The notes under the pieces are model-generated. The model ran no database searches, was not told the DNA's origin, and worked only from the letters and a program-made list of their open reading frames with translations. Positions 33,329 to 59,384 of a stretch of 64,000 bases of DNA are shown one piece after another. Source of the stretch: an uncultured Actinomycetes bacterium (GTDB taxonomy: Bacteria > Actinomycetota > Acidimicrobiia > Acidimicrobiales > CAVRDY01). The translations under genes and the position numbers were made by a program. The stretch spans positions 165,577 through 229,576 of the forward strand of contig CAVRDY010000016.1 of assembly GCA_963719935.1 (NCBI GenBank), read 5' to 3'. The stretch's first letter is position 1; the number at the start of each line of letters is the position of its first letter.

Positions 33329-35440
33329 GCCGGAGCACCACCGGCCCGCGTCCCACCCGACCAACCCGTTCCACCTCGCATACCGGGGCCCAGCGGCGTC
33401 CGCGGAGTCCCGTTCACCACAGCCCCGCGAAGTCGGCGGGCCGGTCGGCCGGCGGGCCGGCAGGCCGACACCCCGGACCTCGCGTGTCCCCCCGGCCCGG
33501 GCGCCGGACAGCGGCTACCGCCCCTGCCGGGCGCCCGCGCCGTCGCCTCGTCGCCCTCGTCGTCATCACCGTCTTGGTGTTCACACTCCTGGCCCTGCGT
33601 GTCGTCCAGCTCCAGGCCCTGGAGCCCGAGCGCTTCGTCGCGCTCAGCGAGGAGCAGACGGTGCGGTCCTTCGCCCTGGCCGCCGACCGGGGGTCGATCC
33701 TGGACCGTCATGGCCATGAGCTGGCGCTATCGATCCCGCAGCGCACCGTCTTCACCGATCCCAAGTTCGTGGAGGAACCATCCACGGCGGCGGCGCAGCT
33801 GGCCCCCATCCTGGGTCGCCCCGCGACTGACATCGAGGCTCAGCTCTCCGCCGAGAACCGCTTCGGCTACCTGGCCCGCCAGGTCAGCGACGACGTAGCG
33901 GAAGCCGTGGAGGCACTGGAGCTGCCGGGTGTCTACACCATCGAGGAACCACACCGCTTCGCTCCCAGCGGTGACCTGGCCACATCGCTGTTGGGCCTGA
34001 CCGACATCGACAACGTCGGTCTGGGAGGTCTGGAGCTCCAGTACGAGGATGTGCTTGCCGGTACACCCGGCCACCTCACCTTCGAGCAGGATCCCGAGGG
34101 TCGAACCATCGCCGGTGGTGAGCACGAGCTGGTGCCTCCCGAGTCGGGTGACAGCGTCATGCTCACAATCGACCGGGCTCTCCAGCACGAGGCCGAGTTG
34201 GTGCTGGCCGAGCACGTCGAGACCAACGGTGCCGAGGCGGGCATGATGGTGGCGACGGACCCACGCACCGGGGAGATCCTGGCCATGGCCAACGTGGGAC
34301 GCTCGGCGGACACGGGGGAGGTGATGGCCAGCACCAACAACCTGGCGCTCACCACCGTCTACGAGCCCGGATCGGTCATGAAGATCGTGGGCATGTCGGG
34401 TGCGTTGGAGGACGGGCTGGTGAGCCCTCAGGGCGCTTGCGTGAACGCCCCCGACTCCCTCGAGGTGGGTGGCGGGACGTTCAGCGAGTACTCGCCCCAC
34501 GGTGGAGGCTGCTGGCCCTTGGAGGACGTGATCGTCAAGTCCTCCAACACCGGAAGCATCAACATCGCCCTGATGCTGGGTCCCGACCGCCTGGCGCACT
34601 ACTTCTCTGCATTCGGGCTGGGGCAGCCGACGGGACTCGGCTTTCCCGAACGAGCTCAGCGGCTACGTCCGGCCGGTGGAGGAGTGGTGGGGGACGTCCA
34701 TCGCCAGCATGCCGATCGGGCAGGGCATCTCGGTCACGCCGCTGCAGATGCTGCTGGCCTACAACACGATCGCCAACGACGGGCTCTTCGTGCCTCCGAG
34801 CCTGGTGCGGGCCACCGTGGACGCCGAAGGCCGCGAACATCTTGGCCCCAGGCCAGAACGGCGAGTTGTTTCGGCCGCGACTGCGGCCCAGGTTCGTGGG
34901 ATGCTCACCGAGGTGGTCACTCGGGGAACGGCCACATCGGCGCAGATGGACGGCCACCTGGTGGCGGGAAAGACGGGAACGGCGCAGATCCCGGCCCCCG
35001 AAGGTGGCTACATGTTCACTGACGGTACGAAGCACTACATGGCGACGTTCTGTGGAATGGTGCCGGCTGACGCCCCACGCTTCTCGGCCTGCGTCGCCAT
35101 CCAGCACCCCACCGCCGGCCCTTACACCGGAGGTGCCGTGGCGGCTCCGGCCTTCGCCGACTTCGCGCGGGTGGCGGTGGCCCGGCTACGCATCCCACCC
35201 AGCACGCTCGGGCTCCCGGCCGAGGATCTGGGCCCGACCTCCCGTGACACCGAAGTGGAGCGGTGGTTCACCGGACTCGGTGCACCGCCGGAGGGGCGGG
35301 TACGGGCCGAACCTGCGGGGAGCGCGCCGATCGATCCCGCCAGCGGACCCCCGACCTCCGGCGCGGCCACGTCGCCGGAATCGGGTAGTGCAGACCCCGC
35401 TGCGCCGTCGACCACGGCATCCCCCAGCAACAGCGGGTGA
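33325..35440 (+). pseudogene. ftsI: penicillin-binding protein FtsI (class B PBP), one +1 frameshift at about 34648
   Basis: N-terminal 440 aa are in the frame of ORF 33325. From EEWWGTSIASMPIGQGISVTPLQ..GKTGTAQ onward the protein is in the frame of ORF 34676. Removing g34648 gives GFPNELSGYVRPVEEWWG. Confidence 0.85.
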
Positions 35441-36948
35441 GCAGCGTGCGTCTCGACGCGCTGGTCAGGTCGATCCCCGGCCCCGATCGCCCGACGGTCA
35501 CCGGCGATGCCGGTGTCGAGGTGACCCGCGTCGACCATGACTCCCGACAGGTGGAACCAGGCAGTCTCTTCGCGTGCCTTCCCGGCCGCCACCACGACGG
35601 CCACGACTTCGCGACCACCGCAGTCGCGCGGGGTGCAGTGGCCCTGCTCTGCGGGCATCCGTTGAACCTGGGCGTGCCCCAGGTCGTCGTGGCCGACCCC
35701 CGTGGCGCACTCGGACCACTGGCGGCTCGGGTCGTGGGTGACCCGTCCCTTCACGGGCTCCGGGTCGTGGGGGTCACGGGAACCAATGCCAAGACGACCG
35801 TGGTGCACCTCACAGCCGCTGTGGCCTCCTCGGTGGGCAGGGGTGCACGGGCCATGGGGACGTTGACCGGACCTCGAACAACCCCCGAGGCCCCCGAGCT
35901 CCAGAGGGCCCTTCGTGATGCTCTCGACCACGGCGATCAGCTCGTGGTCATGGAGGTGTCCTCACACGCCTTGGCCCTGCACCGCGTGGACGGCACCCGC
36001 TTCGCGGTGGCGGCATTCACCAACCTCAGTCCTGAACATCTCGACTTCCACCGGGACATGGAGGACTACTACGCCTCCAAGGCGCGGCTGTTCACCCCCG
36101 AGCTGTCAGAGGTCGGCGTGGTCAACGTCGACGATCCCTGGGGTAGCCGCCTTCGCGAGGAAGCAACCATCCCGACGATCCCGGTGGGCCTCCACCTGCT
36201 GGAGGGTCTGGAGGTGGGCCTGGACCGCCTCTCGTGCACCTGGCGCGGGCACCCAGTCGTCGTGCCCCTCGGTGGACGGTTCAACGCCGAGAACGTGTTG
36301 ATGGCCGCCGAGGTGGCCGTGGCAACCGGGATCGAACCGTCCGAGGTGGCCCGGGCGCTGGGCCAGGTTCAGCCCGTCCCCGGTCGCTTCGAGGTGGTGG
36401 AAGGGGGCCAGCCCTTCGTGGTGGTCGTGGACTATGCCCACACCCCCGCGGGTCTGGAGAGGGTGCTCACCAACGCCCGGGAGCACACCACCGGGCGACT
36501 GGCGGTGGTCTTCGGTTGTGGCGGGGACCGTGATCGGGAGAAGCGACCGGCCATGGGAGCCGTAGCCGAGCGGATCGCCGACCGGGTCGTGGTGACCGAC
36601 GACAACCCTCGAAGCGAGGATCCGCACTCCATCGTTGCGGCCATCCTGGCGGGCATGGCCGAACCGTCCCGGGCCGTCGTGGTCCATGACCGCCGAGCCG
36701 CCATCGCCGACGCGCTGGCGGCTGCACGCGAGCATGACACCGTGGTCATCGCCGGCAAGGGACACGAACAGACCCAGGTCTTCGGCGACCAGAGCCGGCC
36801 CTTCGACGACCGGGTGGTGGCCCGGGACCTGCTGGCCACGACCGGCTACGCGGCAACAGGCGACGCCGGAAGTGACACCGGCGTTGACACCGACGGCAAG
36901 GCGTACGGTCGCTCAGGCGACCAGCCAGGCGAGACTTCCCCCGAATGA
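35437..36948 (+). CDS. murE: UDP-MurNAc-L-Ala-D-Glu:meso-DAP ligase MurE
   Basis: GVTGTNAKTT, DYAHTP and DNPRSEDP motifs. GTGA overlap with ftsI. Intact 503-aa ORF. Confidence 0.9.
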   Translation: MSSVRLDALVRSIPGPDRPTVTGDAGVEVTRVDHDSRQVEPGSLFACLPGRHHDGHDFATTAVARGAVALLCGHPLNLGVPQVVVADPRGALGPLAARVVGDPSLHGLRVVGVTGTNAKTTVVHLTAAVASSVGRGARAMGTLTGPRTTPEAPELQRALRDALDHGDQLVVMEVSSHALALHRVDGTRFAVAAFTNLSPEHLDFHRDMEDYYASKARLFTPELSEVGVVNVDDPWGSRLREEATIPTIPVGLHLLEGLEVGLDRLSCTWRGHPVVVPLGGRFNAENVLMAAEVAVATGIEPSEVARALGQVQPVPGRFEVVEGGQPFVVVVDYAHTPAGLERVLTNAREHTTGRLAVVFGCGGDRDREKRPAMGAVAERIADRVVVTDDNPRSEDPHSIVAAILAGMAEPSRAVVVHDRRAAIADALAAAREHDTVVIAGKGHEQTQVFGDQSRPFDDRVVARDLLATTGYAATGDAGSDTGVDTDGKAYGRSGDQPGETSPE

Positions 36949-37979
36949 TCCGCCTCCTGCTGGCCGCGGCCACCGCTCTTGCCCTGTCGCTCATTGGCAC
37001 CGCCCTGGTGATCCGGCTGCTGTCGCGCGCCGGTATCGGCCAGCCCATCCGCGAGGACGGTCCTTCTGGCCACCAGACCAAGGCCGGCACCCCCACCATG
37101 GGTGGTCTGGCGGTCGTGGGCGCGGCGCTGTTCGGCTACCTGGTCTCCGACATCTACGGGGGCATCTACACCCGCACCGGGATCATCGCCATGCTCACCA
37201 TGGCCACCGCAGGGATGGTGGGTCTGCTCGACGACTGGCTGAAGGTATCCAAGGCCCGCAACCTGGGTCTCAACAAGCGGGCCAAGAGCATCGGGCTGCT
37301 GGTGGTGGCGGGGGGGCATGCCGCCATGATCCTGGCCTTCACCGAACCCAGCACCACCTTGTCCTTCACCCGCTTCGACTCACCCGGCATCGAACTCGGA
37401 ACCTGGGGATGGGCTGCGGTCGCGGTGTTGCTGGTCATCGCAACAACCAACGCCGTGAACCTCACCGACGGGCTGGATGGTCTGGCGGCCGGCTCGGCTG
37501 CGTTGGGGTTCGCCGCCTTCGTCGTCATCGGCTTCTGGTCCTTCTCGAATCCCGAGATCTACCAGGTCGACCATGCCCTGGATCTGGCGGTCGTGGCCGC
37601 CTCGATGCTGGGTGCCACGACAGGGTTCCTCTGGTGGAACGCGGCCCCGGCCCGCATCTTCATGGGGGATACGGGATCTCTGGCCATCGGCGCGGCGCTG
37701 GCCTCTCTGGCCCTCAACCTGGATGTGATCCTGCTGCTACCCATCATCGGTGGGCTGTACGTCATGGAGACCACGAGCGTGATCCTCCAGGTGGGTACGT
37801 TCAGACTGCTCGGCGGCCGTCGTATCTTCCGGATGGCGCCGATACATCACCACTTCGAGCTGTTGGGCTGGCCCGAGACCACCGTGATCATCCGCTTCTG
37901 GATCATCGCGGGCATGTGCGCAGCGGTTGCCCTCGGGCTCTACTACGCCGACTTTGCAGCGCTGGAGCGCCTGCTGTGA
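36945..37979 (+). CDS. mraY: phospho-MurNAc-pentapeptide translocase MraY
   Basis: ATGA overlap with murE. NAVNLTDGLDGLA, FMGDTGSLA and APIHHHFE motifs. Intact. Confidence 0.9.
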   Translation: MIRLLLAAATALALSLIGTALVIRLLSRAGIGQPIREDGPSGHQTKAGTPTMGGLAVVGAALFGYLVSDIYGGIYTRTGIIAMLTMATAGMVGLLDDWLKVSKARNLGLNKRAKSIGLLVVAGGHAAMILAFTEPSTTLSFTRFDSPGIELGTWGWAAVAVLLVIATTNAVNLTDGLDGLAAGSAALGFAAFVVIGFWSFSNPEIYQVDHALDLAVVAASMLGATTGFLWWNAAPARIFMGDTGSLAIGAALASLALNLDVILLLPIIGGLYVMETTSVILQVGTFRLLGGRRIFRMAPIHHHFELLGWPETTVIIRFWIIAGMCAAVALGLYYADFAALERLL

Positions 37980-39332
37980 GCGAGGCCACCACCGCTGTTG
38001 CCCGGGTGCCTCACGGTCCCGCACTGGTCCTCGGGTTGGGTGTCTGTGGGCGGGCCGTTGCCGCCACGCTGGTGCGGTCGGGCAGGCCGGTGGTGGTGGT
38101 CGAGGACCATCCCCGCACCGAGCACCGTGTGACGGCAGACTTGCTCGGTGTGACTCTGGTGGATGCCCCGGATCCCGAGCGCTGGCCCGAGTTGGTGTCG
38201 GGTGCGTCCGTCCTGTTCCCGAGCCCAGGGGTCCCCGATGTCCATCCTGTGTTCGCGGCCGCCCGGGCGGCGGGCGTGCCGGTGCGCAGCGAGCTGGATC
38301 TGGCCGGCGCCCTCGACGACCGACCGGTCGTTGCAGTCACGGGAACCGACGGTAAGACGACGGTGACCGAGATGGTCACCCGCATGGTGGTGGCGGGAGG
38401 CCGGCGGGCGGTGACCGCTGGGCAACACCGAGATCCCACTCGTGGCTGCCATCGACGATCCTGTCCCTGAGGTGTTCGTGGTGGAGGCCTCTTCCTTCAG
38501 CCTGGGTCACACCCATCACTTCGTACCCGCGGTGGGCACGTGGTTGAACTTCGGACCCGACCACCAGGACGTCCACCGCGACCTGGCGGCGTACGAGGCG
38601 GCCAAGGCCCGGATCTGGGCCGACCTCGGAGGCGACCAGGTGGCCGTGGCCAACCGTGACGATCCTGTGGTCATGGGCAACCTGCCTCCCGGGGTTCCAG
38701 TGCGCACTTTCGGTCGCACCGACGGCGACTACCGGATGGAGCGGGGTCACCTCGTCGGCGAGGAGGGTCCGATCCTGGCGGTGGAGGAGCTCTCGCGCGA
38801 CCTGCCCCACGACATCTCGAACGCGCTGGCGGCCACCGCCACGGCCCGTGGAGTGGCGGTGGAGATGAGCGCGGTGGCAAGTGTGCTCCGCAGCTTCGAG
38901 CATCCGGCCCATCGGGTGCAGACCGTGGCCGAAGTGGCCGGAGTGCGCTGGGTGGACGACTCCAAGGCCACCACGCCCCATGCCACCCTCGCGGCGGTTG
39001 CCGGGTTCGGGTCGGTGGTGCTGGTGGCGGGTGGTCGCAACAAGGGTCTCGACCTCGTGGCTCTTCGGGCTGCGGTCCCACCGCGTTGCGGGCGGTGGTC
39101 GCCATCGGCGAAGCTGCCGACGAGCTCGTGCGAGGTTTTCGACGGAGTCGTCCCCGTCGTCACCGCCCAGTCGATGGACGACGCCGTCGACCGGGCCGCC
39201 ACCCTCGCCCGCTCCGGCGACACCGTGCTGCTGTCCCCGGCGTGCGCGTCCTTCGACTGGTACAGCTCCTACGCCGAACGGGGCCGGGACTTCACGGCTG
39301 CGGTGGGCCGACACTCGGGGAGCCTGCGGTGA
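37976..39332 (+). pseudogene. murD: UDP-MurNAc-L-Ala:D-Glu ligase MurD, at least 3 frameshifts as assembled
   Basis: GTGA overlap with mraY. VTGTDGKTT motif. Frame changes at the G-run 38420-38422 (+1), the C-run 39077-39079 (-1) and the T-run 39136-39139 (+1). The pieces lie in ORFs 36635.., 38442.. and 39086... Confidence 0.85.
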
Positions 39333-40512
39333 CCGTCACCCGGGTCGAGACCCGTGATCCCCGCCGACAGGCGCGTGGCGACAGAGGTGGTCGCCGCACC
39401 CGGCGGGTCAGCGGGCGTGGGCGGGCCACTTCGGCCTCGCTGGTCATGCTGGCCGTCATCGTGGTGCTCAACCTGATCGGCCTGGTCATGGTGCTCTCGG
39501 CCTCGTCGGTCACGGCCCTGTACGAGTACGGCTCATCCTGGCACTTCTTCCTGCGCCAAGCGGCCTGGGTGACCGCAGGCCTCCTGGCGCTGGTGGTGGT
39601 CATGCGGGTCGACTACCGCCGGTGGCAGGCCGCTGGCCACCGCCCTTGTCGTTCTGTCCATGTTGCTACTGGTGGCCGTGCTGACCGTCGGTGTCGAGGT
39701 CAACGGCGCCCGTCGCTGGCTGGGTACCGATCCATCTGGCGGTCCAGCCCTCCGAGTTCGCCAAGCTCGCCCTCGTGCTGTTCGTGGCGGACCTCCTGGC
39801 CCGCCGTGCCGACAAGATGGGGCGCGGCGACGCACCCTCCACCCGGTGCTGGTGGTGCTCGGGGATGGTCGCGGCCTGGTCATGCTGCAGCCCAACCTCG
39901 GCACCACGATGTTGCTCGTCGCCATCGCGCTGCACCCTGATGTTCGTGGCAGGAACCCCTCTGCGTAGCCTGGCCGGGCTCCTGGCCCTGGCCGGGGGCT
40001 GCGGTCGCCGCCCTGGCCCTGGCGGCTCCCTACCGCCGGGCCCGGCTGACGGCCTTCCTCGATCCCGTGGGCCGACCCGCAGAACACCGGCTACCAGACC
40101 ATCCAGTCGATGACGGCCATCGCCACCGGAGGGCTGTTCGGGCAGTGGACTGGGTGCGGGCCGGGCCAAGTGGGAGTTCCTCCCCGAGGCCCACACCGAC
40201 TTCATCTTCTCGATCATCGCCGAGGAGCTCGGCCTGGTCGGGGCGCTGCTGGTGCTGGCCCTGTTCGTCGACCTTTGCGCGTGCTTCGGGTCGCGGACCG
40301 CGCTGCGGGCCCCCGATCGCTTCGGCATGCTCGTGGCCGCGGGGATCACCGCCTGGATGTCGTACAGGCGGTGGTGAACCTCGGAGCTGTGCTGGGCGTG
40401 CTGCCCGATCACCGGCGTGCCGCTGCCCTTCGTGTCCTTCGGGGGTCCGCCATGCTCGTGACCATGGCTCGCCACCGGCATGCTGCTGAACATCGCCCGA
40501 CAGTCGGACTGA
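39329..40512 (+). pseudogene. ftsW: SEDS-family lipid II flippase/glycosyltransferase FtsW, multiple frameshifts
   Basis: GTGA overlap with murD. Conserved pieces are spread over three frames (LSASSVTALYEYGSSWHFF, QPSEFAKLALVLFVADLL, QPNLGTTMLL, GVPLPFVSFGGSAML). Stop TGA at 40510-40512. Confidence 0.8.
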
Positions 40513-41634
40513 TGGCACCCACCTGGTGCGTCATCGCCGGCGGCGGGACCGCCGGCCACCTCCTGCCCGGGCCTGGCGGTGGCAGAGGAGTTGGTGCGCC
40601 GGGGCCATGCCCGCAGTGCCATCCACTTCGTCGTGAGCGAACGGCCGATCGATCGCCGCTCGTGGCCGAGGCGTCCGGCTTCGACTTCACCACCCTTCCC
40701 GGGCGGGGCATCCAACGCCGTCTCACGCTCGAGAACCTGGCGGCGGCATGGGGGCTGATGCAGCGCCTTCTCCCAGGCGGTTCGGCTCTTCGCGCCGCGA
40801 GCGCCCCTCGGTGGTCCTGGCCGTGGGTGGCTACGCCAGCATCGCCTGTGCGGTCGGCGGCTCGACTGCTGCGGGATTCCCTTGGTCGTGGCCGAGCAGA
40901 ACGCCCGGGCCGGTTGGGCCAACCGGGTGGCAGGTCGCTTTGCACGGTGCCTGTTCCGTTGCCTTCGAAGGCACCGACCTTCCTCGGGCCATGGTCACCG
41001 GGAATCCCGGTGCGCTCCGAGATCCTCGCCGTCGACCGGGCGCCGACCGCGCGGCAGCCCGCCAGGCATTGGGCCTACCCCCGCGATCGGGTGGTCGTCC
41101 TGGTCTTCGCGGGTTCCCTGGGTGCCCGGCACGATCAACGATCGCCGTCTGCGGAACGGCCTCGCGACGTGGCGGGACCGCTCCGATCGTGGCGATCCGC
41201 CACGTCATCGGGATCGCGACTGGGAGCCTCGCACCCATCGTGGCCGATCTGAGTGACGGTGCCCTCCGTTACCAGGCGGTTCGTACGAAGGACGACATGC
41301 CCATCGCGTTGGCTGCAGCCGACGTGGCGGTGTGCCGAGCGGGGGGGACCACGGTGGCCGAGTTGGCCGTCGTGGGCCTGCCGGCGGTACTGGTTCCGCT
41401 CCCGATCGCCACCCGGGACCATCAGAGCGCCAACGCGGCGCAGCTGGTCGAGGCCGGTGCCGCGAGGCTGGTGCCGGATGCCGCGCTCGACCGCCGATCG
41501 CCTCCGGACCGAGCTCGAAGCGATGACCGACGATTCACCGACCCGCCAGGCGATGGCCGCTGCAGCCAGGAGCTGTGGGCGGCCGAACGCGGGGTCGCGG
41601 GTCGCCGATCTCCTGGAGGTGCCAAGCTCGGTGA
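40513..41634 (+). pseudogene. murG: UDP-GlcNAc:lipid I transferase MurG, multiple frameshifts; 3' boundary approximate
   Basis: ATG 40513 follows directly after the ftsW stop. MAPTWCVIAGGGTAGHLLPG at the N-terminus and RAGGTTVAELAVVGLPAVLVPLPIATRDHQSANA in another frame. Confidence 0.8.
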
Positions 41635-43033
41635 GCGCGGAGACTGTCGACCTCAACGACACCGGGTTCGTTCCACGTCGTCGGTATCGGCGGATCAGGG
41701 ATGAGTGCCATCGCCGAGGTGCTGGTGGCGCATGGGCCACCGGGTGTCGGGGCGCGACCTGAGCGATGTCCGTGACCGCTCGATCGGCTCCGTGCCTGGG
41801 TGTGACCGTGTTCGTCGGGCACTCCGCCGCCAACGTCGGGTGAGGCCGAGGTCGTGACTGCATCGACGGCGATCCAGCCGCACCAACCCCGAGGTCCGGG
41901 CCGGCTGGAGCGCGGTATCCCCGTGTTGGCCCGAGCCGAGATCCTGTCCGCCATCACCGCGCACCCGTCGGACGGTCGCGGTGGCGGGAACCCATGGCAA
42001 GACGACGACCTCGTCGATGCTGGCCCTGGCCTTGCGGGCAGCCGGCTGGTCGCCCGTCGTTCATCATCGGCGGCGACCTGAACGAGGTGGGGTCGGGGGC
42101 GGTGTGGGAGAGGGTGAGTGGTTGGTGGTCGAGGCCGACGAGAGCGATGGCACGTTCCTGACCCTCGACGCCGAGGCCGCGATGCTCACTTCGACGGAGC
42201 CGGACCATCTGGCCCACTACGGCAGCGTGGAGGCCCTTCGGTCCGCCTTCGAGCAGTTCGTGGCCGGGCGGCCAGGACCGGTCGTCGTCTGCGCCGACGA
42301 GCCGACCGGCCCGGGCCATGGCCGATAGCCACGGGCGTGCGTCACCTATGGGACGCGATCCCGATCGACCGGATATCGCATCACCGACGTCGTAGCCGAT
42401 GGGGTCAGCTCGTCCTTCCCGTCGTGTGCGCCGGCGACACCGAGCTGGGCCGGATCGAGCTACCGGTGCCCGGGGTGCACAACGCCCGCAACGCCACCGG
42501 TGCCCTGGCCCTGGCTCACAGCCTCGGTGCTCCTGCCGATGCGGTCGCTGCGAGCGCTGGCCCGCTTCGCCGGTGTCGCTCGTACGGTTCCAGTTCCGAG
42601 GGACGAGCCGGGTGACGTGACCTTCGTCGACGACTACGCGCACCTCCCCCTGGAGGTGGCGGCCGCAGTGGCGGCCGCCCGGGAGGGCCGATGGGCCCGG
42701 GTGGTCTGCGTCTTCCAGCCCCATCGGTACAGCCGTACCGCGTCGCTCTGGCAGGACTTTGCAGACTCGTTCATCGATGCCGACATCTTGGCGATCACGG
42801 ACGTCTATCCGGCGGGGGAGCGACCTCGACCCGGCGTGTCGGGCCGCCTGGTCGTCAACGCCGTGCTCGACGCCCACCCCTGGAGCTCGGTCGCCTATGT
42901 TCCCCGACGAACTGACCAGCAGGCCTATCTGGCGTCGGTGCTCCGCTCGGGCGATCTGTGCCTGACACTCGGCGCGGGTGACCTGACCTCGCTACCCGAT
43001 GACCTGCGCCCGACCCTGGCAGGTGTCCCATGA
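41631..43033 (+). pseudogene. murC: UDP-MurNAc:L-Ala ligase MurC, multiple frameshifts; 5' boundary approximate
   Basis: GIGGSGMSAIAEVL-type N-terminus (read across frames), AGTHGKTTTSSM, and DDYAHLP..FQPHRYSRT in ORF 42500..43033. Confidence 0.8.
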
Positions 43034-43968
43034 GCGTGGTCGAGGAGGCACTGGAGCTTCTGGGTCCCATGGCACGGGCCGATGTCCCGCTCGGCCCGCT
43101 CACCACGTATCGGGTCGGCGGGGCAGCCGCGGTATTGGTGGAGGCCGAGGATGTGGCGGCGCTGGCGCAGACCTCCGTCGCGGCACGGGGCCACCGGCTT
43201 GCCGCTGCTGGTCGTGGGCAACGGCTCGAACCTGCTTGGTGGCCGACGACGGCTTCGCGGGGATCGCCGTACGTCTCGGATCCGAGTTCGGCGAGTGGAC
43301 ATCGCCGGGTCCGACGGTGCGGGCCGGGCGGAGTCGGCGCTGCTTGCCCGTCGTGGCACGGCGCACCGCGGCCGCCGGTCTGCGCGGGTTCGAGTGGGCG
43401 GTGGGCGTTCCCGGATCGATCGGTGGTGCGGTGCGCATGAACGCCGGCGGGCACGGGTCCGACATGGCGAGTGCCTCGGTCGGGTCCGCGTCGTCGACCT
43501 GCGCACCGGCGACGATGACGTGGTGACCGCAGCCGACCTCGACCTGGGCTACCGCCACTCGTCGGTGCGCAGCCGACCAGGTCGTGCTCTGGGCGGAGCT
43601 GGTGCTGGCGCCCGGTGATCGCCGGGGCGGAGGCCGCAGATCGCCGAGATCGTCGCGCTGGCGTCGGAGCACCAGCCCGGTGGAGCGAACGCCGGTTCGG
43701 TGTTCACCAACCCGCCCGGCGACGCCGCTGGCCGCCTGATCGACGCCGCGGGCTGCCGGGGCATGCGGCATCGGTACCGCGGAGGTCTCGACCAAGCACG
43801 CCAACTTCATCCAGGCCGACGAGGGAGGGCGTGCCGAGGACGTGTACGCACACTGATGCTCGCAGGTGACACGGACGGGTTCGCGCGGAGCGCCGGCGTC
43901 GAGCTCGTTCCCGAGACCCGCCTGGTGGGCTTCGACCCCGCTCGGAGTGGGCCGGGGACCCAGGCTGA
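43030..43968 (+). pseudogene. murB: UDP-N-acetylenolpyruvoylglucosamine reductase MurB, multiple frameshifts; 3' end approximate
   Basis: ATGA overlap with mur[42 protein letters not shown] and ELVPETRLVGF lie in different frames. Confidence 0.7.
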
Positions 43969-43969
43969 C

Positions 43970-44836
43970 GTGCGATCGGCCCGCGACGATCGACCCCCGA
44001 GCCAGCGACCACGACGCCACCGTGGGGCCCGGGATCCAGCCGCCGGCCGCGACGGCTCGACGGCATCGCGCGCTGCGGGCCGGCTGGCAGCGATGGCCGT
44101 CGTGGGTTCTGCCGTGGCTCGCTCGCCAGGAGCCGCCCTGCTCGATGTGGATCGAATCGAGGTCACAGGTGCCACGCATACGGGCACCGACGCCGTGCTC
44201 GGCGTACTGGGATCGCGCCGGGGGACCGATGATCGACGTCGAGCCGGGCAGGCCCGCGGTGCCGTGGCAAGGCTGCCCTGGGTCGCGTCGGTCTCGGTGG
44301 ACGCGTTCCTGGCCGTCGCACGGTCGGGTGGTGATCGACGAGCGCGGCGCCCGTGGCCGTCGTCGGTGGCGAGGAGGCAGTGGCACCGCCTGGACGGCCT
44401 GGCCGTGTCCTGGCTACCAGCCGCGGAGTCCCGTCCGGATCTCATCCTGGTTGAGGGGGCTGTCGCCGGTGGCCGTGGGTGAGGTGGTCTCGGGTCCGGA
44501 CCGGCTGGACGATCTCCTCCATGTCGCTGCGGCGATGCCACCCGAGCTACGGGCCGAGGTCGACCGCGTACGGCTTGGTCCCGAGGGCGAGGTGGAGCTG
44601 GGGGTGATTCCCGTGGCGGAGGGTCCGGTTGGGAGACACCACGCCAGCTAGACCAGAAGTTGGCCGCCGGGGAGGTGTTGTTCCACCAGGTCGATGACCG
44701 CTGCATCGTGGTCATGGACCTCCGCGTTCCTGAGGCCCCGACGGTCGCCCGCGACCCGGCCTGTGCAGGGCCCGGACGTGACGATGTGGCAGATCCGAGC
44801 GCCGACGGAGGTCACTGCGTTCCCAGCAGCGGCTGA
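43970..44836 (+). pseudogene. ftsQ: cell division protein FtsQ (POTRA domain), multiple frameshifts; boundaries approximate
   Basis: IDPR motif, LLDVDRIEVTGATHTG (POTRA), LPWVASVSV. The C-terminal piece KLAAGEVLFHQVDDRCIVVMDLRVPEAPTV is read past the apparent stop at 44651 and ends at TGA 44834-44836. Confidence 0.6.
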
Positions 44837-44857
44837 GAGTGTGCTCCAGATTGGCCA

Positions 44858-44888
44858 TTGACTTTCCCCAGGAACCTGTGGTTAAAGT
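44858..44888 (+). promoter_or_regulatory. candidate ftsZ promoter (TTGACT ... TAAAGT) in a locally AT-rich spacer
   Basis: TTGACT at 44858-44863 and TAAAGT at 44883-44888. The 19-nt spacer is slightly long. This is the only AT-rich stretch in the ftsQ-ftsZ gap. Confidence 0.3.
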
Positions 44889-45118
44889 GTCACGCGCAAT
44901 CGGAGGTTGACATAACGTTCAACCAACGGTTGAGGGTATGGGGCACCTCGACTCCAGGTCAGAAGGTCACCGGCAGGCCGGGACTGCATCAGCGTCTCGA
45001 GGGACTCCGGGCGGACGTCTCCGAACCCATGTCCGACATGCCAGACCGAGGAGGTCCGAGGTCGTGCCCGAACTCTTCGATACCAACGAGAGCACCAACC
45101 GGGAGGTGGTGAGCACCC

Positions 45119-46270
45119 ATGTCCGAACCCCCAGAACTACCTGGCGGTCATCAAGGTGGTCGGCGTCGGCGGCGGCGGCGTGAACGCCGTCAACCGCATG
45201 ATCGACGCCGGCCTGAAGGGCGTCGAGTTCATCGCCGTGAACACCGACGCCCAGGCGCTGCTGATGAGCGACGCCGACGTCAAGATCGACATCGGCCGCG
45301 AGCTGACCCGCGGCCTCGGTGCCGGCATCCGATCCCGAGGTCGGCCGTCAGGCGGCCGAGGAGCACCGCGAGGAGATCGAGCAGGTCCTCGCGGGCGCCG
45401 ACATGGTCTTCATCACCGCCGGCGAGGGTGGTGGCACCGGTACCGGTGCCGCCCCGGTGGTCGCCGAGATGGCCAAGACCATGGGTGCGCTCACCATCGG
45501 CGTGGTCACCCGGCCGTTCTGCTTCGAGGGTCGCCGCCGCGCGGTGCAGGCCGAGCAGGGCATCCAGAAGCTCAAGGAGAAGGTCGACACCCAGATCGTC
45601 ATCCCCAACGACCGGCTGCTCACCGTCTCCAACGACAAGACCTCGGTGCTCAACGCCTTCAAGATGGCCGACGAGGTCCTGCTCCAGGGCGTGCAGGGCA
45701 TCACCGACCTGATCACCACCCCGGGTCTCATCAACACCGACTTCGCCGACGTGAAGATGATCATGAGCGACGCCGGGTCGGCCCTCATGGGCATCGGCTA
45801 CGCCTCCGGTGAGGGACGGGCGCTCAACGCGGCGCGCGGCGCCATCTCCAGCCCGCTGCTCGAGGCCTCGATCGAGGGAGCCCGGGGGATCCTGCTCACC
45901 ATCGCCGGCGGCAGCGACCTCGGCCTGTTCGAGGTCAACGAGGCCGCCGAGGTCATCCACGGCGTGGCCCATCCCGACGCCAACATCATCTTCGGCACCG
46001 TCGATCGACGACGAGATGGGCGACGAGGTGCGGGTCACGGTCATCGCCGCCGGCTTCGACCGCTGGGACGAGAGCCGGACAAGCGAAGCGAGGCGCCGGC
46101 CAAGAAGGTGGTCAAGAAGCGACCGGCTCCTGAGCCGACACCGGTACCTGCGGGCGCCGCCGCCGGTGCCGCCCGGACCCGGCATCCCCTGGAGCCGACC
46201 GACGTCACCGGTGGAGGAGACGACCTCGACGACGGATGACGACTTCGACGTGCCGTCGTTCCTGAAGTAG
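45119..46270 (+). pseudogene. ftsZ: cell division GTPase FtsZ, at least 3 (probably 5) frameshifts as assembled
   Basis: ATG 45119 with GGGAGG upstream. The C5 run at 45128-45132 has one extra C; removing it gives [25 protein letters not shown] further indel lies near 45327 (GLGAG/SDPEVG) and another near 46000 ([21 protein letters not shown]). [10 protein letters not shown] and NTDFADV are intact. C-terminal end reads [11 protein letters not shown]. Confidence 0.9.
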
Positions 46271-46301
46271 CGCTGGCACCGAACCCCGCGAGGCGTGGAC
46301 C

Positions 46302-47013
46302 ATGCCCGTGGAGGTGCATCGCTCGCCCTGACGGGTGGTGGCGGCCCGGGTCGTCGTGACCGGACAGGGCCGACGGCGACCTACGGGTTGACGGCCCGCC
46401 GGCGGCAGCTCGGCACGCCGGCGGGCCGTCCGTCGATCGACCCGTGGGTCTGGCTCGACCAGGTCCACGGCGCGGAAGTGGTCGACGGCGACGCTCGTCG
46501 ACGGTGCGGTGCCCGCGCTGACGCCGTCGTGATCACCCGCTCCGCGAGGGTCGCCCTGCTGTACACACCGCGGACTGCGTGCCGGTGGCTCTCGTCGGCG
46601 CCCGACACAGGCGATGTGGCCGCGGTTCATGCCGGCTGGCGAGGCCTGGCATGCCGGGGTCATCGAAGCGGCAGTAGCCGCGGTAGCCGGCGGTCCCGTG
46701 GTCGAAGAGGACGGTGCGACCATGGCGCTCGTCGGTCCCTGCATCTCCGCGCTCTGCTACGACTTCGGTGCCGACGACCTGGACACCGTGGTCGTGCGGT
46801 ACGGCGTCGCGGTGCGGGCTCGGACGCGCGACGGTGGGCCGGCCCTCGATCTGCCGGGCCGGCGTGTGCCGGCCCTGTCAGCGTGCCGGTGTCGGTCGAG
46901 ATCGAGGTCTCCGGTCATTGCACCGGTCCTGTGATCCGGACCTCTCTTCAGCCACCGGCTCGGCGGGGACCGGCAACGCCAGGCACTGCGTGGTGTGGCT
47001 CGAGGAGCAGTGA
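46302..47013 (+). pseudogene. pgeF: PgeF/YfiH-family (laccase-domain) peptidoglycan editing factor, multiple frameshifts
   Basis: LDQVHGAEVV, AAVHAGWRG, VGPCISALCYDFG and a ..VVWLEEQ end lie in three frames. The 5' end is approximate. Confidence 0.7.
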
Positions 47014-47760
47014 GTCCTGTGAGTCGAACCCGTTCCGGGCGAGCCGGCTCCTGTGGGACCCAGCGGCGTCGAGGACGTCGCGCGAACGGCGGTGACTCTT
47101 CGCGACGGCTCGGCGGCTGCGGGCGGCGACGGGGTACGACGTCGTGGCGGTGACCAAGGGACTCGGGGTCGATGCGGTGCGTGGCCGCCCAGGATGTCGG
47201 GCCTGACCGACCTCGGTGAGAACTACGCCCAGGAGCTCGTGGCCAAGGCGACCGGATGCGAGAGGGCGGGGGACCAGATCGCGGGCCCCGATGGCACTTC
47301 ATCGGCCGGCTCCAACGCAACAAGGTCCGCCGTCTGGCGCCCATCGTCACTCTGTGGCAGACGGTCGACCGCCTCGCGGTGGGGCGTGAGATCGCCCGGT
47401 GGGCCGCCGGGGGCAGCCGGTCCTGGTGCAGGTGAACGTGCTCGGGCGAGGCCCAGAAGGGCGGGTGCGACCGGCGACGAGGTCCCCGGTCTGGTGGCCG
47501 CGCTCGTCGGCGGAGGGCCTCGACGTCAGGGGCCTCATGGCGGTGGGCCCGACCGGCCCGCCGGCGGACGCCCGGAGCCGTTCGCACCGCCTCGTGGCGG
47601 TCTCGCCGACGATCTGGGACTGCGCGGTGCGCTCGATGGGGATGAGCAGCGGACCTCGAGGTCGCGGTCGCGGCCGGAGTCGACCATGGTGCGGGTGGGG
47701 AGCGATCTCTTCGGCCCGCGCCCTGCCCGGCTCCGTCGGTCAGACGGCGCGACCCTCGGT
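47010..47760 (+). pseudogene. yggS: YggS-family PLP-binding protein, multiple frameshifts; 3' end undetermined
   Basis: GTGA overlap with pgeF. VVAVTKG, LGENYAQELVAKA, VLVQVNV, LMAVGP and STMVRVGSDLFGPRP motifs are spread over frames. No stop codon in any frame before sepF. Confidence 0.6.
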
Positions 47761-47836
47761 TCGGACCCCGGGCCCGGCAAGATCGCTCCGCGGGGTGCCG
47801 AGCAACTGCGCCCTCTCCTATCGGCAGGAGGACACG

Positions 47837-48372
47837 ATGGCATCGACGTGGCGCCGCGCCATGCTCTATCTGGGGTTGGGCCCGGACGAGGAGTACGAGG
47901 ACTACGAGCCCCCACCCGAGCGCGCTCCGCGGCCCGACCGAGGTCGCCCCGCCGGCGGCGGCCCGGCTCCCCGCCCCGCGCCCGTCCCCCAACGCGGCGA
48001 GGCCGCGAGACAGTCAGCAAGGTGCGGCCGGTGCGGCGCCCGGAGCAGAACCGGCGCAAGCCCCGCCCTGCAGCGGTACGGCCGGTGCCGGTGCCGGCGA
48101 ACGCCAAGCCGTCCGTCGTGGCCCCCAGGTCGTTCAACGACACCCAGGAGGTGGCCGACAAGTTCAAGGCCAACCAGCCGGTGATCGTGAATCTCCAGGG
48201 AGTCGATCGGGATCTTGCCCGGCGTATCATCGACTTCGCCTCGGGCATCTGTTACGGCCTCGGTGGCCAGATGGAGCGGGTGGCCAGCGCGGTGTACCTG
48301 CTCACTCCGACCAACGTCGAAGTGTCCGTCGAAGAGCGCCGACGCCTCCAGGAGCGCGGCTACGACGCCTGA
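47837..48372 (+). pseudogene. sepF: cell division protein SepF, one frameshift near 47990
   Basis: The N-terminus MASTWRRAMLYLGLGPDEEYEDYE (frame of ORF 47399) joins the C-terminus FNDTQEVADKFKANQPVIVNLQGVDRDLARRIIDFASGICYGLGG (frame of ORF 47053). Confidence 0.8.
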
Positions 48373-48417
48373 GCGGTGGACTGAGACCGATTCGGGAGCC
48401 CTGATGGGAGCGGAGCC

Positions 48418-48671
48418 ATGACTGCCGTGGTGTGCTGGGTGCTCACGGCGTACTGGTTCGTACTGATCTTGCGCATCGTGGCCAGTTGGTTCCCTGCTCC
48501 CACCAGTGCGGCCGGTGAGCAGTTCATGGGGTTGCTCTGGTCCCTGACCGAACCGGTCCTCGCTCCCGTGCGCTCGCTGTTCCCCCCGTCCGGGCGGGCG
48601 GGCTGGCCCTGGACCTGTCGCCCATCGCAGTGTTCATCGTCATCGCGATCCTCCGCGGGGCCATCTGCTGA
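48418..48671 (+). pseudogene. YggT-family membrane protein, one frameshift near 48590
   Basis: N-terminus MTAVVCWVLTAYWFVLILRIVASWFP..EPVLAPVRSLFPP. The C-terminus LALDLSPIAVFIVIAILRGAIC-stop (TGA 48669-48671) is in another frame. The track ORF 48418..50226 is an artefactual fusion with divIVA. Confidence 0.7.
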
Positions 48672-48747
48672 AGGCCTCCCAGGGACCGTATCGCGGTGCC
48701 GAAGGCATCCCCCGGGCAGGTGGAGGAGCAGGAGTAGCATCCGCCGC

Positions 48748-50226
48748 ATGGACGCCACCGCCACCCTGACTGACATCAAGTTCAACGAGGCCAAGCGGGG
48801 CTACGACCCGGTCGAGGTGGACAACTTCCTCGAGAAGCTCGGCGATGCGGTCGTCAAGTTGCAGGACAAGGTGCGCGAGGCTGGGAGGCGGGCCGATGAA
48901 GCGGCCACCCGGGCCACGACCGCTGAGCAGCGGGCCACAGAACTCGAACGGCGCGCGCTGGATGCCGAGGCGAAGCTGGCGGCAGGTGGTGGTGAAGCCC
49001 CCGCCGACGAGGCCGAGTTGACCGAGACCCTCAAGAAGACCCTGCTCCTCGCTCAGCGCACCGCGGATGACACGGTCAGGGAGGCCACGGACGAGGCCGA
49101 GCGGCTGCGTACCGAGGGTCGCCAGCAGGCCGCCCGAATGGTCGACGAAGCCAACCGCGACGCTGCTCGACGCCTCGCCGAGGCCGAGGCGGATCTGGCT
49201 GCCAAGACCGAGCAGGAGAGCCAGGAACTGGTTGCCCAGATCACCAAGCTCGAGAGTCTCCGCGACGATCTGCTGGCCGACGTGGAGCTGCTCGACACGC
49301 ACCTGGCGAGCGTGCGCGAGTCCCTGGCTGTCGGCGTGGCCGACCTGACTGAGCTGGTCGAGCACCCCGAGCGGCTCCGTGCCCGGGACCGTCCCACTCT
49401 GCGTCGCCCAGCGGAGGTCTCGGCTGCTACCGACACGCAGATGAAGCCCGCGACGGCCGAGGCAGCCGCAGATCAGGGTGTTGACGGCGGCGGAGAGAAG
49501 CCGAAGCCTGCATCCGCCGACCCCGGCGTTTCGGCCGAGCCTGCTGCTGCAGCGACCGTGACCGAGCCGACGCTTCCGCCGGCGGCCGTGCCGGCCAGAG
49601 CCAAGGAGGGACAGGCCAAGGACGCTCCGGCCAAGGAGGGACAGGCCAAGGAGGGACAGGCCAAGGAGGGACAGGCCAAAGGAGGCCCGATCAGGGCTGC
49701 GCTGGATCCATCCGATGTCGGGCCGTCCGCGAGTAGCACGTCCGCAGGTCGCCAGACCCCAAGCCCGCCCCGGCAGCATGGGTCCGGTGCACGCCCTGGT
49801 GAGGTGCCGACCCCTGGTGGAGCTGGACCCTCCGTGCCGCCCCGCCCCGCTGCATCGCCCGACCAAGCGGAGTCGTCTTCGTCGGAGGCGGGCAAACCGC
49901 GCCCAGCACCTTTCGTCTTCGGCCGCGCTCCCGCAGGCAAGGGCCAGGACGCGGCGGCAGCGGGGAGTGCCGCGTCACCGGTCAAGAGTGCGCCTGGCGA
50001 GGACGGGACCGGTCCCGTGGAGGACGCCGGTCCTCCTACCCAGCCGATCGACCTCACCGAGGGAGCATCGCCTGACGACGGCTTCCTGGACGAGCTGCGG
50101 CGGGCCGTCGACGAGGACAACCCACTCGGACCGGGCGACCCAGATGCCGATGCCGCCATGCAGGCCTTCTTCGAGCAGGATCGCGACGACCTTCCAAAGC
50201 GCGGGCGTTTCGGTCGTCGCCGCTGA
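48748..50226 (+). CDS. divIVA: DivIVA (Wag31-like) with a long low-complexity C-terminal extension
   Basis: ATG 48748. N-terminus MDATATLTDIKFNEAKRGYDPVEVDNFLEKL. A coiled coil is followed by an A/P/G/E/K-rich tail of about 250 aa that includes AKEGQ repeats. Confidence 0.85.
   Translation: MDATATLTDIKFNEAKRGYDPVEVDNFLEKLGDAVVKLQDKVREAGRRADEAATRATTAEQRATELERRALDAEAKLAAGGGEAPADEAELTETLKKTLLLAQRTADDTVREATDEAERLRTEGRQQAARMVDEANRDAARRLAEAEADLAAKTEQESQELVAQITKLESLRDDLLADVELLDTHLASVRESLAVGVADLTELVEHPERLRARDRPTLRRPAEVSAATDTQMKPATAEAAADQGVDGGGEKPKPASADPGVSAEPAAAATVTEPTLPPAAVPARAKEGQAKDAPAKEGQAKEGQAKEGQAKGGPIRAALDPSDVGPSASSTSAGRQTPSPPRQHGSGARPGEVPTPGGAGPSVPPRPAASPDQAESSSSEAGKPRPAPFVFGRAPAGKGQDAAAAGSAASPVKSAPGEDGTGPVEDAGPPTQPIDLTEGASPDDGFLDELRRAVDEDNPLGPGDPDADAAMQAFFEQDRDDLPKRGRFGRRR
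49600..49689. repeat. 15-bp unit gccaaggagggacag x 6 (4 perfect, 2 diverged), in frame in divIVA
   Basis: Units at 49600, 49615 (diverged), 49630, 49645, 49660 and 49675 (diverged). Encodes AKEGQ AKDAP AKEGQ AKEGQ AKEGQ AKGGP. Confidence 0.9.
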
Positions 50227-50235
50227 CGACCACCT

Positions 50236-50259
50236 GGCCCGTCCTTCCGTTGACGGGCC
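50236..50259 (+). terminator. GC-rich hairpin 10 nt after the divIVA stop (possible intrinsic terminator without a U-tract)
   Basis: GGCCCGTC-cttccgtt-GACGGGCC, a perfect 8-bp stem with an 8-nt loop. No T-run follows, so the function is uncertain. Confidence 0.4.
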
Positions 50260-50315
50260 GTGCCCCTGCCCCTACGATGCCTCACCTTTGCGGCAGGAAG
50301 AGGACACCCTCGGCC

Positions 50316-50921
50316 ATGGCATCAACATCCAGCACCAAGAGCAAGACGGTCAAGAAGAAGGCTCCGGCCAAGAAGAAGGCTCCGGCCAAGAAGGCTCCGG
50401 CCAAGAAGAAGGCTCCGGCCAAGAAGAAGGCTCCGGCCAAGAAGAAGGCTCCGGCCAAGAAGGCTCCGGCCAAGAAGGCTCCGGCCAAGAAGGCTCCGGC
50501 CAAGAAGGCTCCGGCCAAGAAGGCTCCGGCCAAGAAGAAGGCGTCTCCTTTCGACAAGAGGTTCCTGACTGAGCAGGAAGGCGCCTTGCGGGCTGAGCGG
50601 TCCACCTACCTGCAGCAGGCCGACGCGCTCCAAGCCGAGGCTGATTCGCTGGTGGCCGAACGTGAACCGGGAGACGTCCAGTTCGACGAAGAGTCCGGCG
50701 AGGGTGACACCATGGCGGTGGAGCGAGCCCGCGATCTGGCGCTGTCGGCCCAGGCCCGTCAGCAGATCACCGAGATCGACCTGGCGCTGGACAAGATCCA
50801 AGACGGCACGTACGGACTCTGCGAAGCGTCGGGCAAGCCCATCCCCAAGGAGCGCCTGCGGGCCATTCCCTGGGCCCGGGTGAGGGTGGAGTACAAGACC
50901 GGGGGCTTCGGTCACCGCTGA
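50316..50921 (+). CDS. bipartite protein: N-terminal Lys/Ala/Pro histone-H1-like tail plus C-terminal DksA/TraR-like domain with a degenerate zinc finger
   Basis: ATG 50316 with AGGAAGAGGA upstream. 11 x (K)KKAPA units. DksA-type coiled coil and [28 protein letters not shown], in which only 1 of the 4 canonical Cys is present. Confidence 0.75.
50352..50540. repeat. 15/18-bp tandem repeat aag(aag)aaggctccggcc, about 11 units, in frame
   Basis: Near-perfect copies encoding [11 protein letters not shown]. Confidence 0.9.
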
Positions 50922-50967
50922 ACCGCCTCGGGCTCCGGGGCTACCTCACCGTCACCTCCCTCTGGCG

Positions 50968-51513
50968 TTGCTCGTCGGGGCAGGTGTGCTGATGGCCGAT
51001 CATCTGTCCAAATGGTGGGCGGTTCGGACCCTGGTAGACGAGCCCCTCGACCTCATCTGGACCCTGCGGCTGCGCCTGGTGTCGAACACGGGTGCCTCCT
51101 TCTCTGTCGGTGAGGGATTCGGGCCAGTCATCGGCGTGATCGCCCTGGCGGTCGTCGGGGCGCTGTTGTGGTCGGGACGCACGGTGGAGACCCGTACAGG
51201 TGCCGTTGGGCTGGGCATGGTTCTCGGCGGAGCACTGGGCAACGTCTTGGACCGCGCCTTCCGTGCCGGCGACGGGCTGATGGCGGGTGCGGTGGTGGAC
51301 TGGATCGACCTCCAGTGGTGGCCGGTGTTCAACCTGGCCGACGCCGGGGTGGTGGTCGGTGCCGTCGTACTGGTCATCTCGGCCGGAAGCCAGGAGCGCG
51401 CCGGCAGCGATGCCGACGAGCTGCTCTCCATCCCACAGGTTCCCGAGACCCGGGTTCCCGACGCGGCCGGTGCCCTTCCCGAGTCGGGGCGCGGGAGTGG
51501 AAACGCGCGGTGA
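50968..51513 (+). CDS. lspA: lipoprotein signal peptidase (signal peptidase II)
   Basis: VSNTGASFS, LGNVLDR, VVDWI and FNLADAG motifs. TTG 50968 is the first canonical start, but the N-terminal TM looks short, so the start is uncertain. Confidence 0.8.
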   Translation: MLVGAGVLMADHLSKWWAVRTLVDEPLDLIWTLRLRLVSNTGASFSVGEGFGPVIGVIALAVVGALLWSGRTVETRTGAVGLGMVLGGALGNVLDRAFRAGDGLMAGAVVDWIDLQWWPVFNLADAGVVVGAVVLVISAGSQERAGSDADELLSIPQVPETRVPDAAGALPESGRGSGNAR

Positions 51514-52445: not shown

Positions 52446-52481
52446 GAGCGGGAGGCAGCCCCGATCGTTGTAGACCGGTGC

Positions 52482-54219: not shown

Positions 54220-54263
54220 GCGCCCGCCCGGCCCCCCGCTAGCCTGGGATTCCCATGACGAGC

Positions 54264-59347: not shown

Positions 59348-59384
59348 AGGGGTTCACACCTGCCGATATCGGGGGATCCCATCC

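Follow-up and report, generated by a model that had tools for sequence, protein, structure and literature searches.

The dcw cluster and its surroundings

The DNA analysed here, a stretch of 64 kb that we refer to as the window, carries a dcw cluster with the order ftsI-murE-mraY-murD-ftsW-murG-murC-murB-ftsQ-ftsZ-pgeF-yggS-sepF-yggT-divIVA, gene identities being assigned from Pfam and NCBIfam profiles. The cluster is of the canonical actinobacterial kind, and its order agrees with the single dcw cluster of related Acidimicrobiales, including JGI contigs that are syntenic with the window and carry FtsZ at 96–97% identity. No murF lies between murE and mraY, either in the window or in the relative L005, and this absence characterises the lineage and has nothing to do with the frame errors described below. 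A reading of 35446–36948 as murF was rejected since NCBIfam identifies the product as MurE (NF001124, 488 bits), as an earlier note on this DNA had also called it. The 64-kb window holds no second copy of the dcw cluster.

A search of 5.8 billion proteins did not return a near-identical genome, the best FtsZ match having 97% amino-acid identity. At the DNA level the best identity among the species-representative matches listed was approximately 70%, and the relative L081 is also about 70% identical outside ftsZ. Almost all of the relatives found are metagenome-assembled genomes.

Distribution of frame errors

The earlier note had proposed that every gene from murD through yggT is broken by frameshifts, and had named frameshift-aware alignment as one way to check this. 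Frameshift-aware DP alignment against the open reading frames (ORFs) of 80 related Acidimicrobiales loci confirmed that each of these genes is disrupted, with approximately 78–96 frame errors over 10.2 kb (38,420–48,582, plus strand), or 0.8–0.9% of bases. This stretch, block A, begins inside murD and stops inside yggT. Most of its error positions were agreed on by 80–100% of the spanning references (up to 100 proteins from the 80 relatives). The 80 loci themselves read as single-frame ORFs, with none shifted at block A positions. A self-trained 3-periodic HMM could not keep a reading frame in the block; this model and homology were used in place of a GC3 frame plot, which was too noisy with a 120-nt window. 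Separate nucleotide multiple alignments, with up to 14 relatives per gene, placed indels private to the window, of 1 nt and in a few cases 2 nt, at the same places as the DP calls, whereas control genes had no out-of-frame private indels.

Some of the errors could be located closely. In murD (37977–39310, plus strand, as are all genes of the block) there are three. The first is a surplus G in the GGG at 38420–38422 (gct-ggG-c-aac, where A-G-N-T-E is expected), borne out as a +1 event by 30/30 spanning references. The second is a −1 event within 39065–39095, called by 28 of 33 references, and the third a +1 event within 39128–39152, called by 29 of 35. For these two the earlier note was right about the event but too precise about the site, as its missing C at 39077–39079 is one admissible placement and its extra T in the T4 run at 39136–39139 is not uniquely supported. 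The ftsZ gene (45119–46270) has three certain errors, at the C5 run 45128–45132, at 45327/8 and at 46003, which were also placed by nucleotide alignment with 14 relatives. A possible further compensating pair in the variable linker would bring its total up to 5–6. The C5 run sits just after the ftsZ ATG at 45119, and removing one C restores the frame over the 13 residues read, upholding the extra C that had been suspected there; a search upstream for a start codon in frame 2 found none.

Damage to most of the other genes is heavier. Approximately 12 errors were counted in ftsW (39292–40506), about 13 in murG (40524–41618), 12–15 in murC (41662–43021), nine in murB (43027–43966), 6–11 in pgeF (YfiH/Cu-oxidase_4 family, 46302–47046) and 11–13 in yggS (PLP-binding, YggS family, 47050–47724). 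The 7–12 errors of ftsQ (43940–44767) are an uncertain count because this gene is poorly conserved. There is a single error in sepF (47774–48369), near 47980, and one in yggT (48418–48671), a −1 event near 48582 through which frame 0 runs on into divIVA as a spurious 602-aa YggT-DivIVA ORF (48418–50226). In total there are approximately 80–95 errors, more than the earlier note had counted by hand, and its 'several each' was too low.

Error density is uneven within block A, which contains clean sub-kilobase patches. Three error-free gaps of 580–680 nt each were found, where approximately 0.5 would be expected.

The sequence flanking block A is undamaged. On the upstream side, 35446–37979 (plus strand) has no frame errors in murE (35446–36948) or mraY (36945–37979), and on the downstream side 48748–52964 is equally clean across divIVA, a gene for a conserved 212-aa protein, lspA and rluD on the plus strand and a Rrf2 regulator gene on the minus strand. 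The zero counts derive from many references for mraY and from L081 for lspA, with reference ORFs in the wrong frame left out. By DP alignment dnaE (55691–59347, plus strand) is also intact, and an identical 1218-aa DnaE is present in a public protein collection. The earlier description of murE, mraY, divIVA and dnaE as intact therefore holds.

The affected region had been given as 38400–48700. That block is real, but the damage is more extensive and patchier, with two further blocks in which errors are equally dense. Block B (53110–54756, plus strand) has nine errors in a phosphodiesterase-family gene and two in a BPA-family gene, all confined to 53.2–54.7 kb. In block C (59384–64000), HMM frame switching and split Pfam domains indicate that nitroreductase, DUF255/thioredoxin-domain and short-chain dehydrogenase (SDR) genes are each split across frames. 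The first 38 kb of the window contains only two isolated errors, a +1 error in ftsI (PBP transpeptidase) near 34.65 kb (34642–34684, plus strand) and one in an ArsA-family ATPase gene near 4.19 kb (4185–4224, plus strand), where positions 2–168 of the ArsA_ATPase profile match in one frame and 182–304 in another. The blocks disregard gene boundaries and gene function, beginning and stopping mid-gene and striking unrelated genes.

Conservation behind the indels and the indel spectrum

When the frame errors were corrected, full-length conserved proteins were recovered. MurD (TIGR01087, 358 bits, positions 3–439 of 441), FtsW (TIGR02614, 396 bits, 3–356 of 357), MurC (TIGR01082, 430 bits, 2–446 of 449), MurB (TIGR00179, 156 bits, 3–288 of 290), FtsZ (TIGR00065, 427 bits) and YggS (TIGR00044, 123 bits, 23–229 of 229) all score above their NCBIfam cutoffs, with alignments that span almost the entire models. 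Corrected MurG slightly misses its cutoff of 250 (TIGR01133, 241 bits, positions 9–353 of 353), and PgeF is clearly below its own (107 bits against 141), with nearly the whole model aligned. The corrected translations contain every hallmark motif that had been picked out beforehand, namely GGGTGTG, NTDFADV, GGGTAGH, GTDGKTT and GTHGKTT. The corrected frames have a GC1/GC2/GC3 of 0.75/0.53/0.85, a pattern shared with the intact genes.

Substitutions tell the same story at conserved residues. Of the positions that are at least 95% conserved among relatives, 8 of 491 deviate in the broken genes of the window, compared with 8 of 216 in its clean ones, so that the broken genes show no surplus of substitutions at such residues. 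The earlier view that in-frame decay is absent stands for motifs and conserved residues, with the reservation that 0–4 stops remain in the corrected frames, all within gapped, poorly alignable stretches adjoining frameshift sites. Those in murC and pgeF persisted under a stronger stop-codon penalty in the DP because they are located in inserted (gap-state) codons, and they probably mark further error pairs.

These observations bear on whether the indels are real mutations through which the cluster, or a second and redundant copy, is genuinely decaying. All genes from murD to yggT are disrupted, and an intact copy might lie outside the 64-kb window, as pseudogenisation of this kind would allow. 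In neutral bacterial DNA, substitutions outnumber indels several-fold. With approximately 85 indels one would thus expect substitutions in the hundreds and stops in the tens, but no substitution excess is seen at conserved residues and the few residual stops, none of them convincing, are all in gapped stretches. GC3 has also been kept, and the corrected proteins reach or approach equivalog cutoffs. In addition, the locus has the conserved gene neighbourhood of the primary dcw cluster, the damage starts mid-gene, and the unrelated genes of blocks B and C are damaged likewise.

The indels themselves differ from those of natural decay. We counted 64 insertions against 31 deletions, a ratio of approximately 2:1, almost all of 1 nt, whereas a natural spectrum has varied sizes with deletions at least as frequent as insertions. 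Among 151 bacterial pseudogenes of a Burkholderia leaf-nodule symbiont there are 396 deletions and 300 insertions (PMC6054270), and these 696 indels, gathered over millions of years, amount to about 4.6 per pseudogene (PMC6054270), far fewer per gene than in block A. Those pseudogenes resemble the genes of block A in being recognisable and carrying multiple frameshifts. They differ in that real pseudogenes combine many indel sizes with substitutions and stops, while block A has about ten one-base indels per gene and an undetectable substitution load. On this evidence pseudogenisation is very improbable. Genuine pseudogenes are also found in other reductive genomes, such as those of Mycobacterium leprae and Sodalis.

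The earlier note had placed several of its indels in homopolymers, but a tendency of this kind was not borne out. The mean longest run within 4 nt on either side was 2.27 at errors and 2.29 at random positions, and 27 of the 36 localised insertions have no identical adjoining base, compared with 54% of background positions. The class of homopolymer-length errors, such as nanopore, 454 or Ion Torrent residuals, was accordingly rejected. A link with a methylation motif was also considered and rejected: GATC, the best 4-mer, lies near 9 of the 36 insertions against a background of 9%. Its P of 0.001 is uncorrected and loses significance once all 256 k-mers are allowed for, and several of the GATC sites are created by the inserted base.

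Recoding offers a second way for the indels to be real, with the frame restored by programmed frameshifting, transcriptional slippage or insertion/deletion RNA editing. Known examples include prfB, dnaX and poly-A slippage in endosymbionts, and the known cases have one site per gene, at a conserved slippery motif or long homopolymer that is conserved across relatives. Block A is like prfB and dnaX in that a conserved protein can be read only with a change of frame, and the encoded information is intact apart from frame, as recoding would need. None of the hallmarks of recoding is present. Approximately 85 sites, with shifts in either direction, occur within 10 kb, and their contexts are heterogeneous, without a common slippery motif or long homopolymer and with no significant association with GATC. 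The inserted bases are mixed (C 13, G 12, T 10, A 1; n=36), mostly without an identical neighbour, and 0/80 relatives are shifted at any of these positions. The blocks also cross gene boundaries, while the same-orientation neighbours murE, mraY and divIVA need no correction. We consider recoding hardly credible. Equally far-fetched would be real indels whose frames are set right in RNA or during translation by an unknown, motif-independent mechanism, or a lineage caught just when a burst of mutagenesis producing only indels had inactivated the whole cluster.

Origin of the errors and consequences for annotation

Taken together, the sequence comparisons indicate that the block is very probably a technical sequence or assembly artefact, and that the dcw cluster of the organism is an ordinary and functional one. 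The earlier note had preferred local sequence or assembly error to pseudogenisation, and every test run here (indel spectrum, conservation, GC and block placement) favours the same choice. The 64:31 bias towards insertions, lacking any link to homopolymers, also counts for an artefact, since real bacterial pseudogenes show the opposite.

We propose that three stretches of the deposited 406-kb contig, at 38.4–48.6, 53.2–54.7 and 59.4–64 kb of the window, were left near raw-read accuracy. They would carry a spurious extra or missing base at approximately 0.8–0.9% of positions, compared with about 0.005% in the rest of the window. The most likely cause would be a noisy long-read or hybrid assembly in which a single read, or very few, covered these stretches, or polishing passed them over, such that read-level indels were kept in the consensus. 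Gene callers would then derive truncated, chimeric and out-of-frame ORFs from the damaged stretches.

There is precedent for such damage. Long-read assembly errors are known to create frameshifts that pseudogenise genes (PMC12007338, PMC9262707, PMC8812927); Kastor (PMC12007338) addresses residual indels that fragment genes, and PMC9262707 and PMC8812927 discuss them for nanopore data. As with the long-read and hybrid residual indels of these papers, the one-base indels seen here fragment conserved genes irrespective of gene function, and their removal restores the proteins. The residual errors that these papers describe are mostly of homopolymer length and spread along the assembly, whereas those of the blocks avoid homopolymers, favour insertions 2:1 and are packed at approximately 0.8% per base into kilobase-scale blocks beside nearly error-free sequence. 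Two points speak against the proposed cause in its simplest form. The non-homopolymer, insertion-biased spectrum is not that of classic polished nanopore, 454 or Ion Torrent residuals, and the three clean gaps of 580–680 nt are not fully explained by a single-read model.

An artefact of another kind, not involving low depth, would arise if co-occurring strains that have diverged were collapsed into one consensus, or if polishing had wrongly drawn on the reads of a related population. The contig may be metagenomic, as the relatives are almost all metagenome-assembled genomes, and the uneven error density with clean sub-kilobase patches in block A would fit such an origin. Mainly substitutions and mosaic haplotypes would be expected from it, but conserved sites show no substitution signal and nearly all of the damage takes the form of 1-nt indels, making this origin unlikely, though less so than real indels. 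The favoured reading is still that of stretches left at read-level accuracy.

The warning that gene calls from the block are unreliable was justified, as a public protein collection drawing on NCBI and ENA already contains its broken fragments. No fewer than three of them represent singleton clusters there, namely an FtsZ fragment of 306 aa, a MurD fragment of 296 aa and a 380-aa out-of-frame ftsW/murG ORF without a Pfam match. The frame errors have no biological significance in themselves, and their value is as a quality flag for gene calls at 38.4–48.6, 53.2–54.7 and 59.4–64 kb, which are unreliable. Fragments of this kind resemble 'novel' or 'orphan' proteins, raise pseudogene counts and depress completeness estimates, and they could suggest a false loss of cell division or peptidoglycan synthesis in an Acidimicrobiales lineage.

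Locus and gene order

The window has a G+C content of ~70% and carries a division and cell wall (dcw) cluster in the order rsmH, ftsL-like, ftsI, murE, mraY, murD, ftsW, murG, murC, murB, ftsQ, ftsZ, pgeF, yggS, sepF, yggT, divIVA, followed downstream by lspA, rluD, an Rrf2 regulator, a phosphodiesterase, BPA, enoyl-CoA hydratase and dnaE. This is the gene order of a normal actinobacterial dcw cluster, and the same order is found in two JGI contigs with FtsZ 96–97% identical. Among the matches listed, Acidimicrobiales and Iamiaceae genomes and MAGs share 91–94% identity with the FtsZ core, and the closest FtsZ among 5.8 billion proteins reaches at most 97% identity. No tRNA or tmRNA was detected anywhere in the 64-kb window, nor did any Rfam family reach its gathering score. 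In most Actinobacteria murF lies between murE and mraY. Here the two genes adjoin directly (35446–37979), as they do in Aquihabitans daechungensis NZ_CP172265 (232–2747), and the missing murF is probably a lineage trait.

Frame errors from murD to yggT

Raw ORFs between 38.4 and 48.7 kb gave only partial domain matches. ORFs from 80 related Acidimicrobiales loci were aligned to the DNA with a protein-to-DNA aligner allowing ±1 frame changes (BLOSUM62, frameshift penalty 14), and errors were counted per gene with the best references. The counts were 3 for murD, 12 for ftsW, 13 for murG, 12–15 for murC, 9 for murB, 7–12 for ftsQ, 3 certain and up to 5–6 for ftsZ, 6–11 for pgeF, 11–13 for yggS, and 1 each for sepF and yggT. 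The total for the block from 38,420 to 48,582 is ~78–96 frame errors, or 0.8–0.9% of bases, and most positions were called by 80–100% of the 20–100 references spanning them. A second, independent method, in which window-private columns were scored in nucleotide multiple alignments of up to 14 relatives (14 for ftsZ, 2–12 for other genes), placed private indels of 1 nt, with a few of 2 nt, at the same positions, and found none out of frame in the control genes murE and rluD. Frameshift-aware alignment likewise required no correction in murE, mraY, divIVA, a 212-aa conserved protein, lspA, rluD or dnaE. Clean gaps of 580–680 nt within the block (38.4–39.1, 42.6–43.2 and 45.3–46.0 kb) make the density uneven, suggesting that parts of it were corrected or had additional coverage locally.

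The earlier note, made from the sequence alone, had stated that every gene from murD to yggT needs at least one frame correction while murE, mraY, divIVA and dnaE are intact; both statements hold, the first being an understatement. Its counts of at least three for murD and one each for sepF and yggT agree with ours, and its minimum of three for ftsZ is certain, the suggested five being only possible. The genes to which it gave several errors each (ftsW, murG, murC, murB, ftsQ, pgeF, yggS) are indeed broken, but "several" understates their errors, which number 6–15 each. Two of its individual sites were confirmed: the extra G in GGG at 38420–38422, and the extra C in the C5 run at 45128–45132, which follows the ftsZ ATG at 45119 and where removal of one C gives a 13-residue reading; the alternative frame there has no start codon. 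For two others, a missing C at 39077–39079 and an extra T at 39136–39139, the events are real (−1 within 39065–39095, +1 within 39128–39152), but the base named is admissible rather than unique. Matching the window MurD apparently also takes two overlapping murD ORFs in different frames (2751–3980 and 3307–4089) in A. daechungensis (murD 2751–4089), and this public complete genome may contain a frameshift too.

Sequence error versus gene decay

Once the indels are removed, the proteins match NCBIfam equivalog models nearly from end to end: MurD scores 358 bits (cutoff 212), FtsW 396 (338), MurC 430 (335), FtsZ 427 (295), MurB 156 (145) and YggS 123 (106), with MurG, at 241, below its cutoff of 250. 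All hallmark motifs quoted in the earlier note are present in the corrected translations, and its view that in-frame decay is not evident also stands. Residual stops number only 0–4, all in gapped, unalignable stretches adjoining shift sites. At residues conserved in at least 95% of relatives (±6 codons masked round each shift; ftsI left out for its poor reference set), the window mismatches at 8/491 in broken genes versus 8/216 in clean genes. Columns that are otherwise invariant carry 0–1 private changes per gene, not above any relative, and GC1/GC2/GC3 of the corrected frames (0.75/0.53/0.85) follows the pattern of intact genes.

In neutral bacterial DNA substitutions exceed indels several-fold, so ~85 real indels should have been accompanied by substitutions in the hundreds and in-frame stops in the tens. 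The indel spectrum is itself unnatural: almost all events are 1 nt, with 64 insertions versus 31 deletions, whereas bacterial pseudogenes show 396 deletions versus 300 insertions and ~4.6 indels per pseudogene (PMC6054270). The absent substitution load and this spectrum are not those of genuine pseudogenes, which makes decay very unlikely. Programmed frameshifting or editing is made very unlikely by the lack of a motif, by ~10 sites per gene and by blocks that cross gene boundaries, and no shift is conserved in the 80 relatives. Moreover, blocks start and stop inside genes and the affected genes are functionally unrelated, a pattern that no selective or gene-specific process would produce.

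Errors also occur outside the dcw cluster. A self-trained 3-periodic Markov HMM followed long single-frame segments ending at stop codons over 1–38 kb, held no frame in 40.4–42.4, 43.2–45.1 and 46.1–48.1 kb, and switched frame repeatedly in 59.4–63.5 kb. By homology, a second block (53.2–54.7 kb) has 9 errors in the phosphodiesterase gene (53110–54207) and 2 in BPA (54268–54756). A third (59384–64000), identified from split Pfam domains and the HMM, starts right after dnaE; its nitroreductase (profile 1–65 and 117–167 in different frames), minus-strand DUF255/thioredoxin-domain gene and short-chain dehydrogenase (adh_short) are all split between frames. Isolated errors lie in an ArsA-family ATPase far from the dense blocks (4185–4224; ArsA_ATPase profile 2–168 and 182–304 in different frames) and, as a +1 event, in ftsI (34642–34684), where the transpeptidase domain of ORF 33325–35022 is cut at profile position 140/299. 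The phenomenon is thus patchy along the contig and not dcw-specific.

The earlier note had placed several of its errors in homopolymers. Some do lie in short runs, such as the C5 and GGG sites, but overall enrichment is absent (mean longest run within ±4 nt 2.27 at errors versus 2.29 at random positions). Nucleotide alignment localised 36 insertions, of which 27 have no identical neighbour base, versus 54% of background positions; the two insertions in the FtsZ core read ggca[T]ccg and cgtc[G]atc. The base inserted was C in 13 cases, G in 12, T in 10 and A in 1. Of these insertions, 9/36 have GATC or CGAT within ±7 nt, versus ~9% of background (sites 38400–54800; uncorrected P ~0.001), which might point to basecalling errors tied to a motif, although the GATC link is not significant after correction for 256 k-mers. 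The errors are single-base, insertion-biased and sequence-independent, with a frequency of ~0.8% per base, and are grouped in kilobase-sized blocks next to almost error-free sequence. As far as sequence can tell, this signature would best fit stretches resting on a single noisy long read or a handful of them, or stretches left out of polishing. That errors in long-read assemblies can pseudogenise genes is well established (PMC12007338, PMC9262707, PMC8812927), and the present case departs from the usual description only in its blockiness and lack of homopolymer drive. We conclude, in line with the earlier note and with high confidence, that the frameshifts are local sequence or assembly error.

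Consequences for gene calls

The warning that gene calls from the block are unreliable is already borne out in a public protein collection, which contains the window's own DnaE (55691–59347, 1218 aa) and MurE (35446–36948, 500 aa). Three block products are singleton cluster representatives there: a 306-aa FtsZ fragment (45319–46236), a 296-aa MurD fragment (38442–39329) and a 380-aa out-of-frame ATG ORF (40110–41249), an ftsW/murG read-through that matches no Pfam family and so resembles an orphan protein. In addition, because the −1 error near 48582 lets frame 0 run on from yggT to divIVA, a spurious 602-aa YggT-DivIVA ORF arises (48418–50226; Pfam YGGT at aa 7–57, DivIVA at aa 198–267). The frameshift block is not a biological feature of this organism, and the value of the finding is as a data-quality flag.
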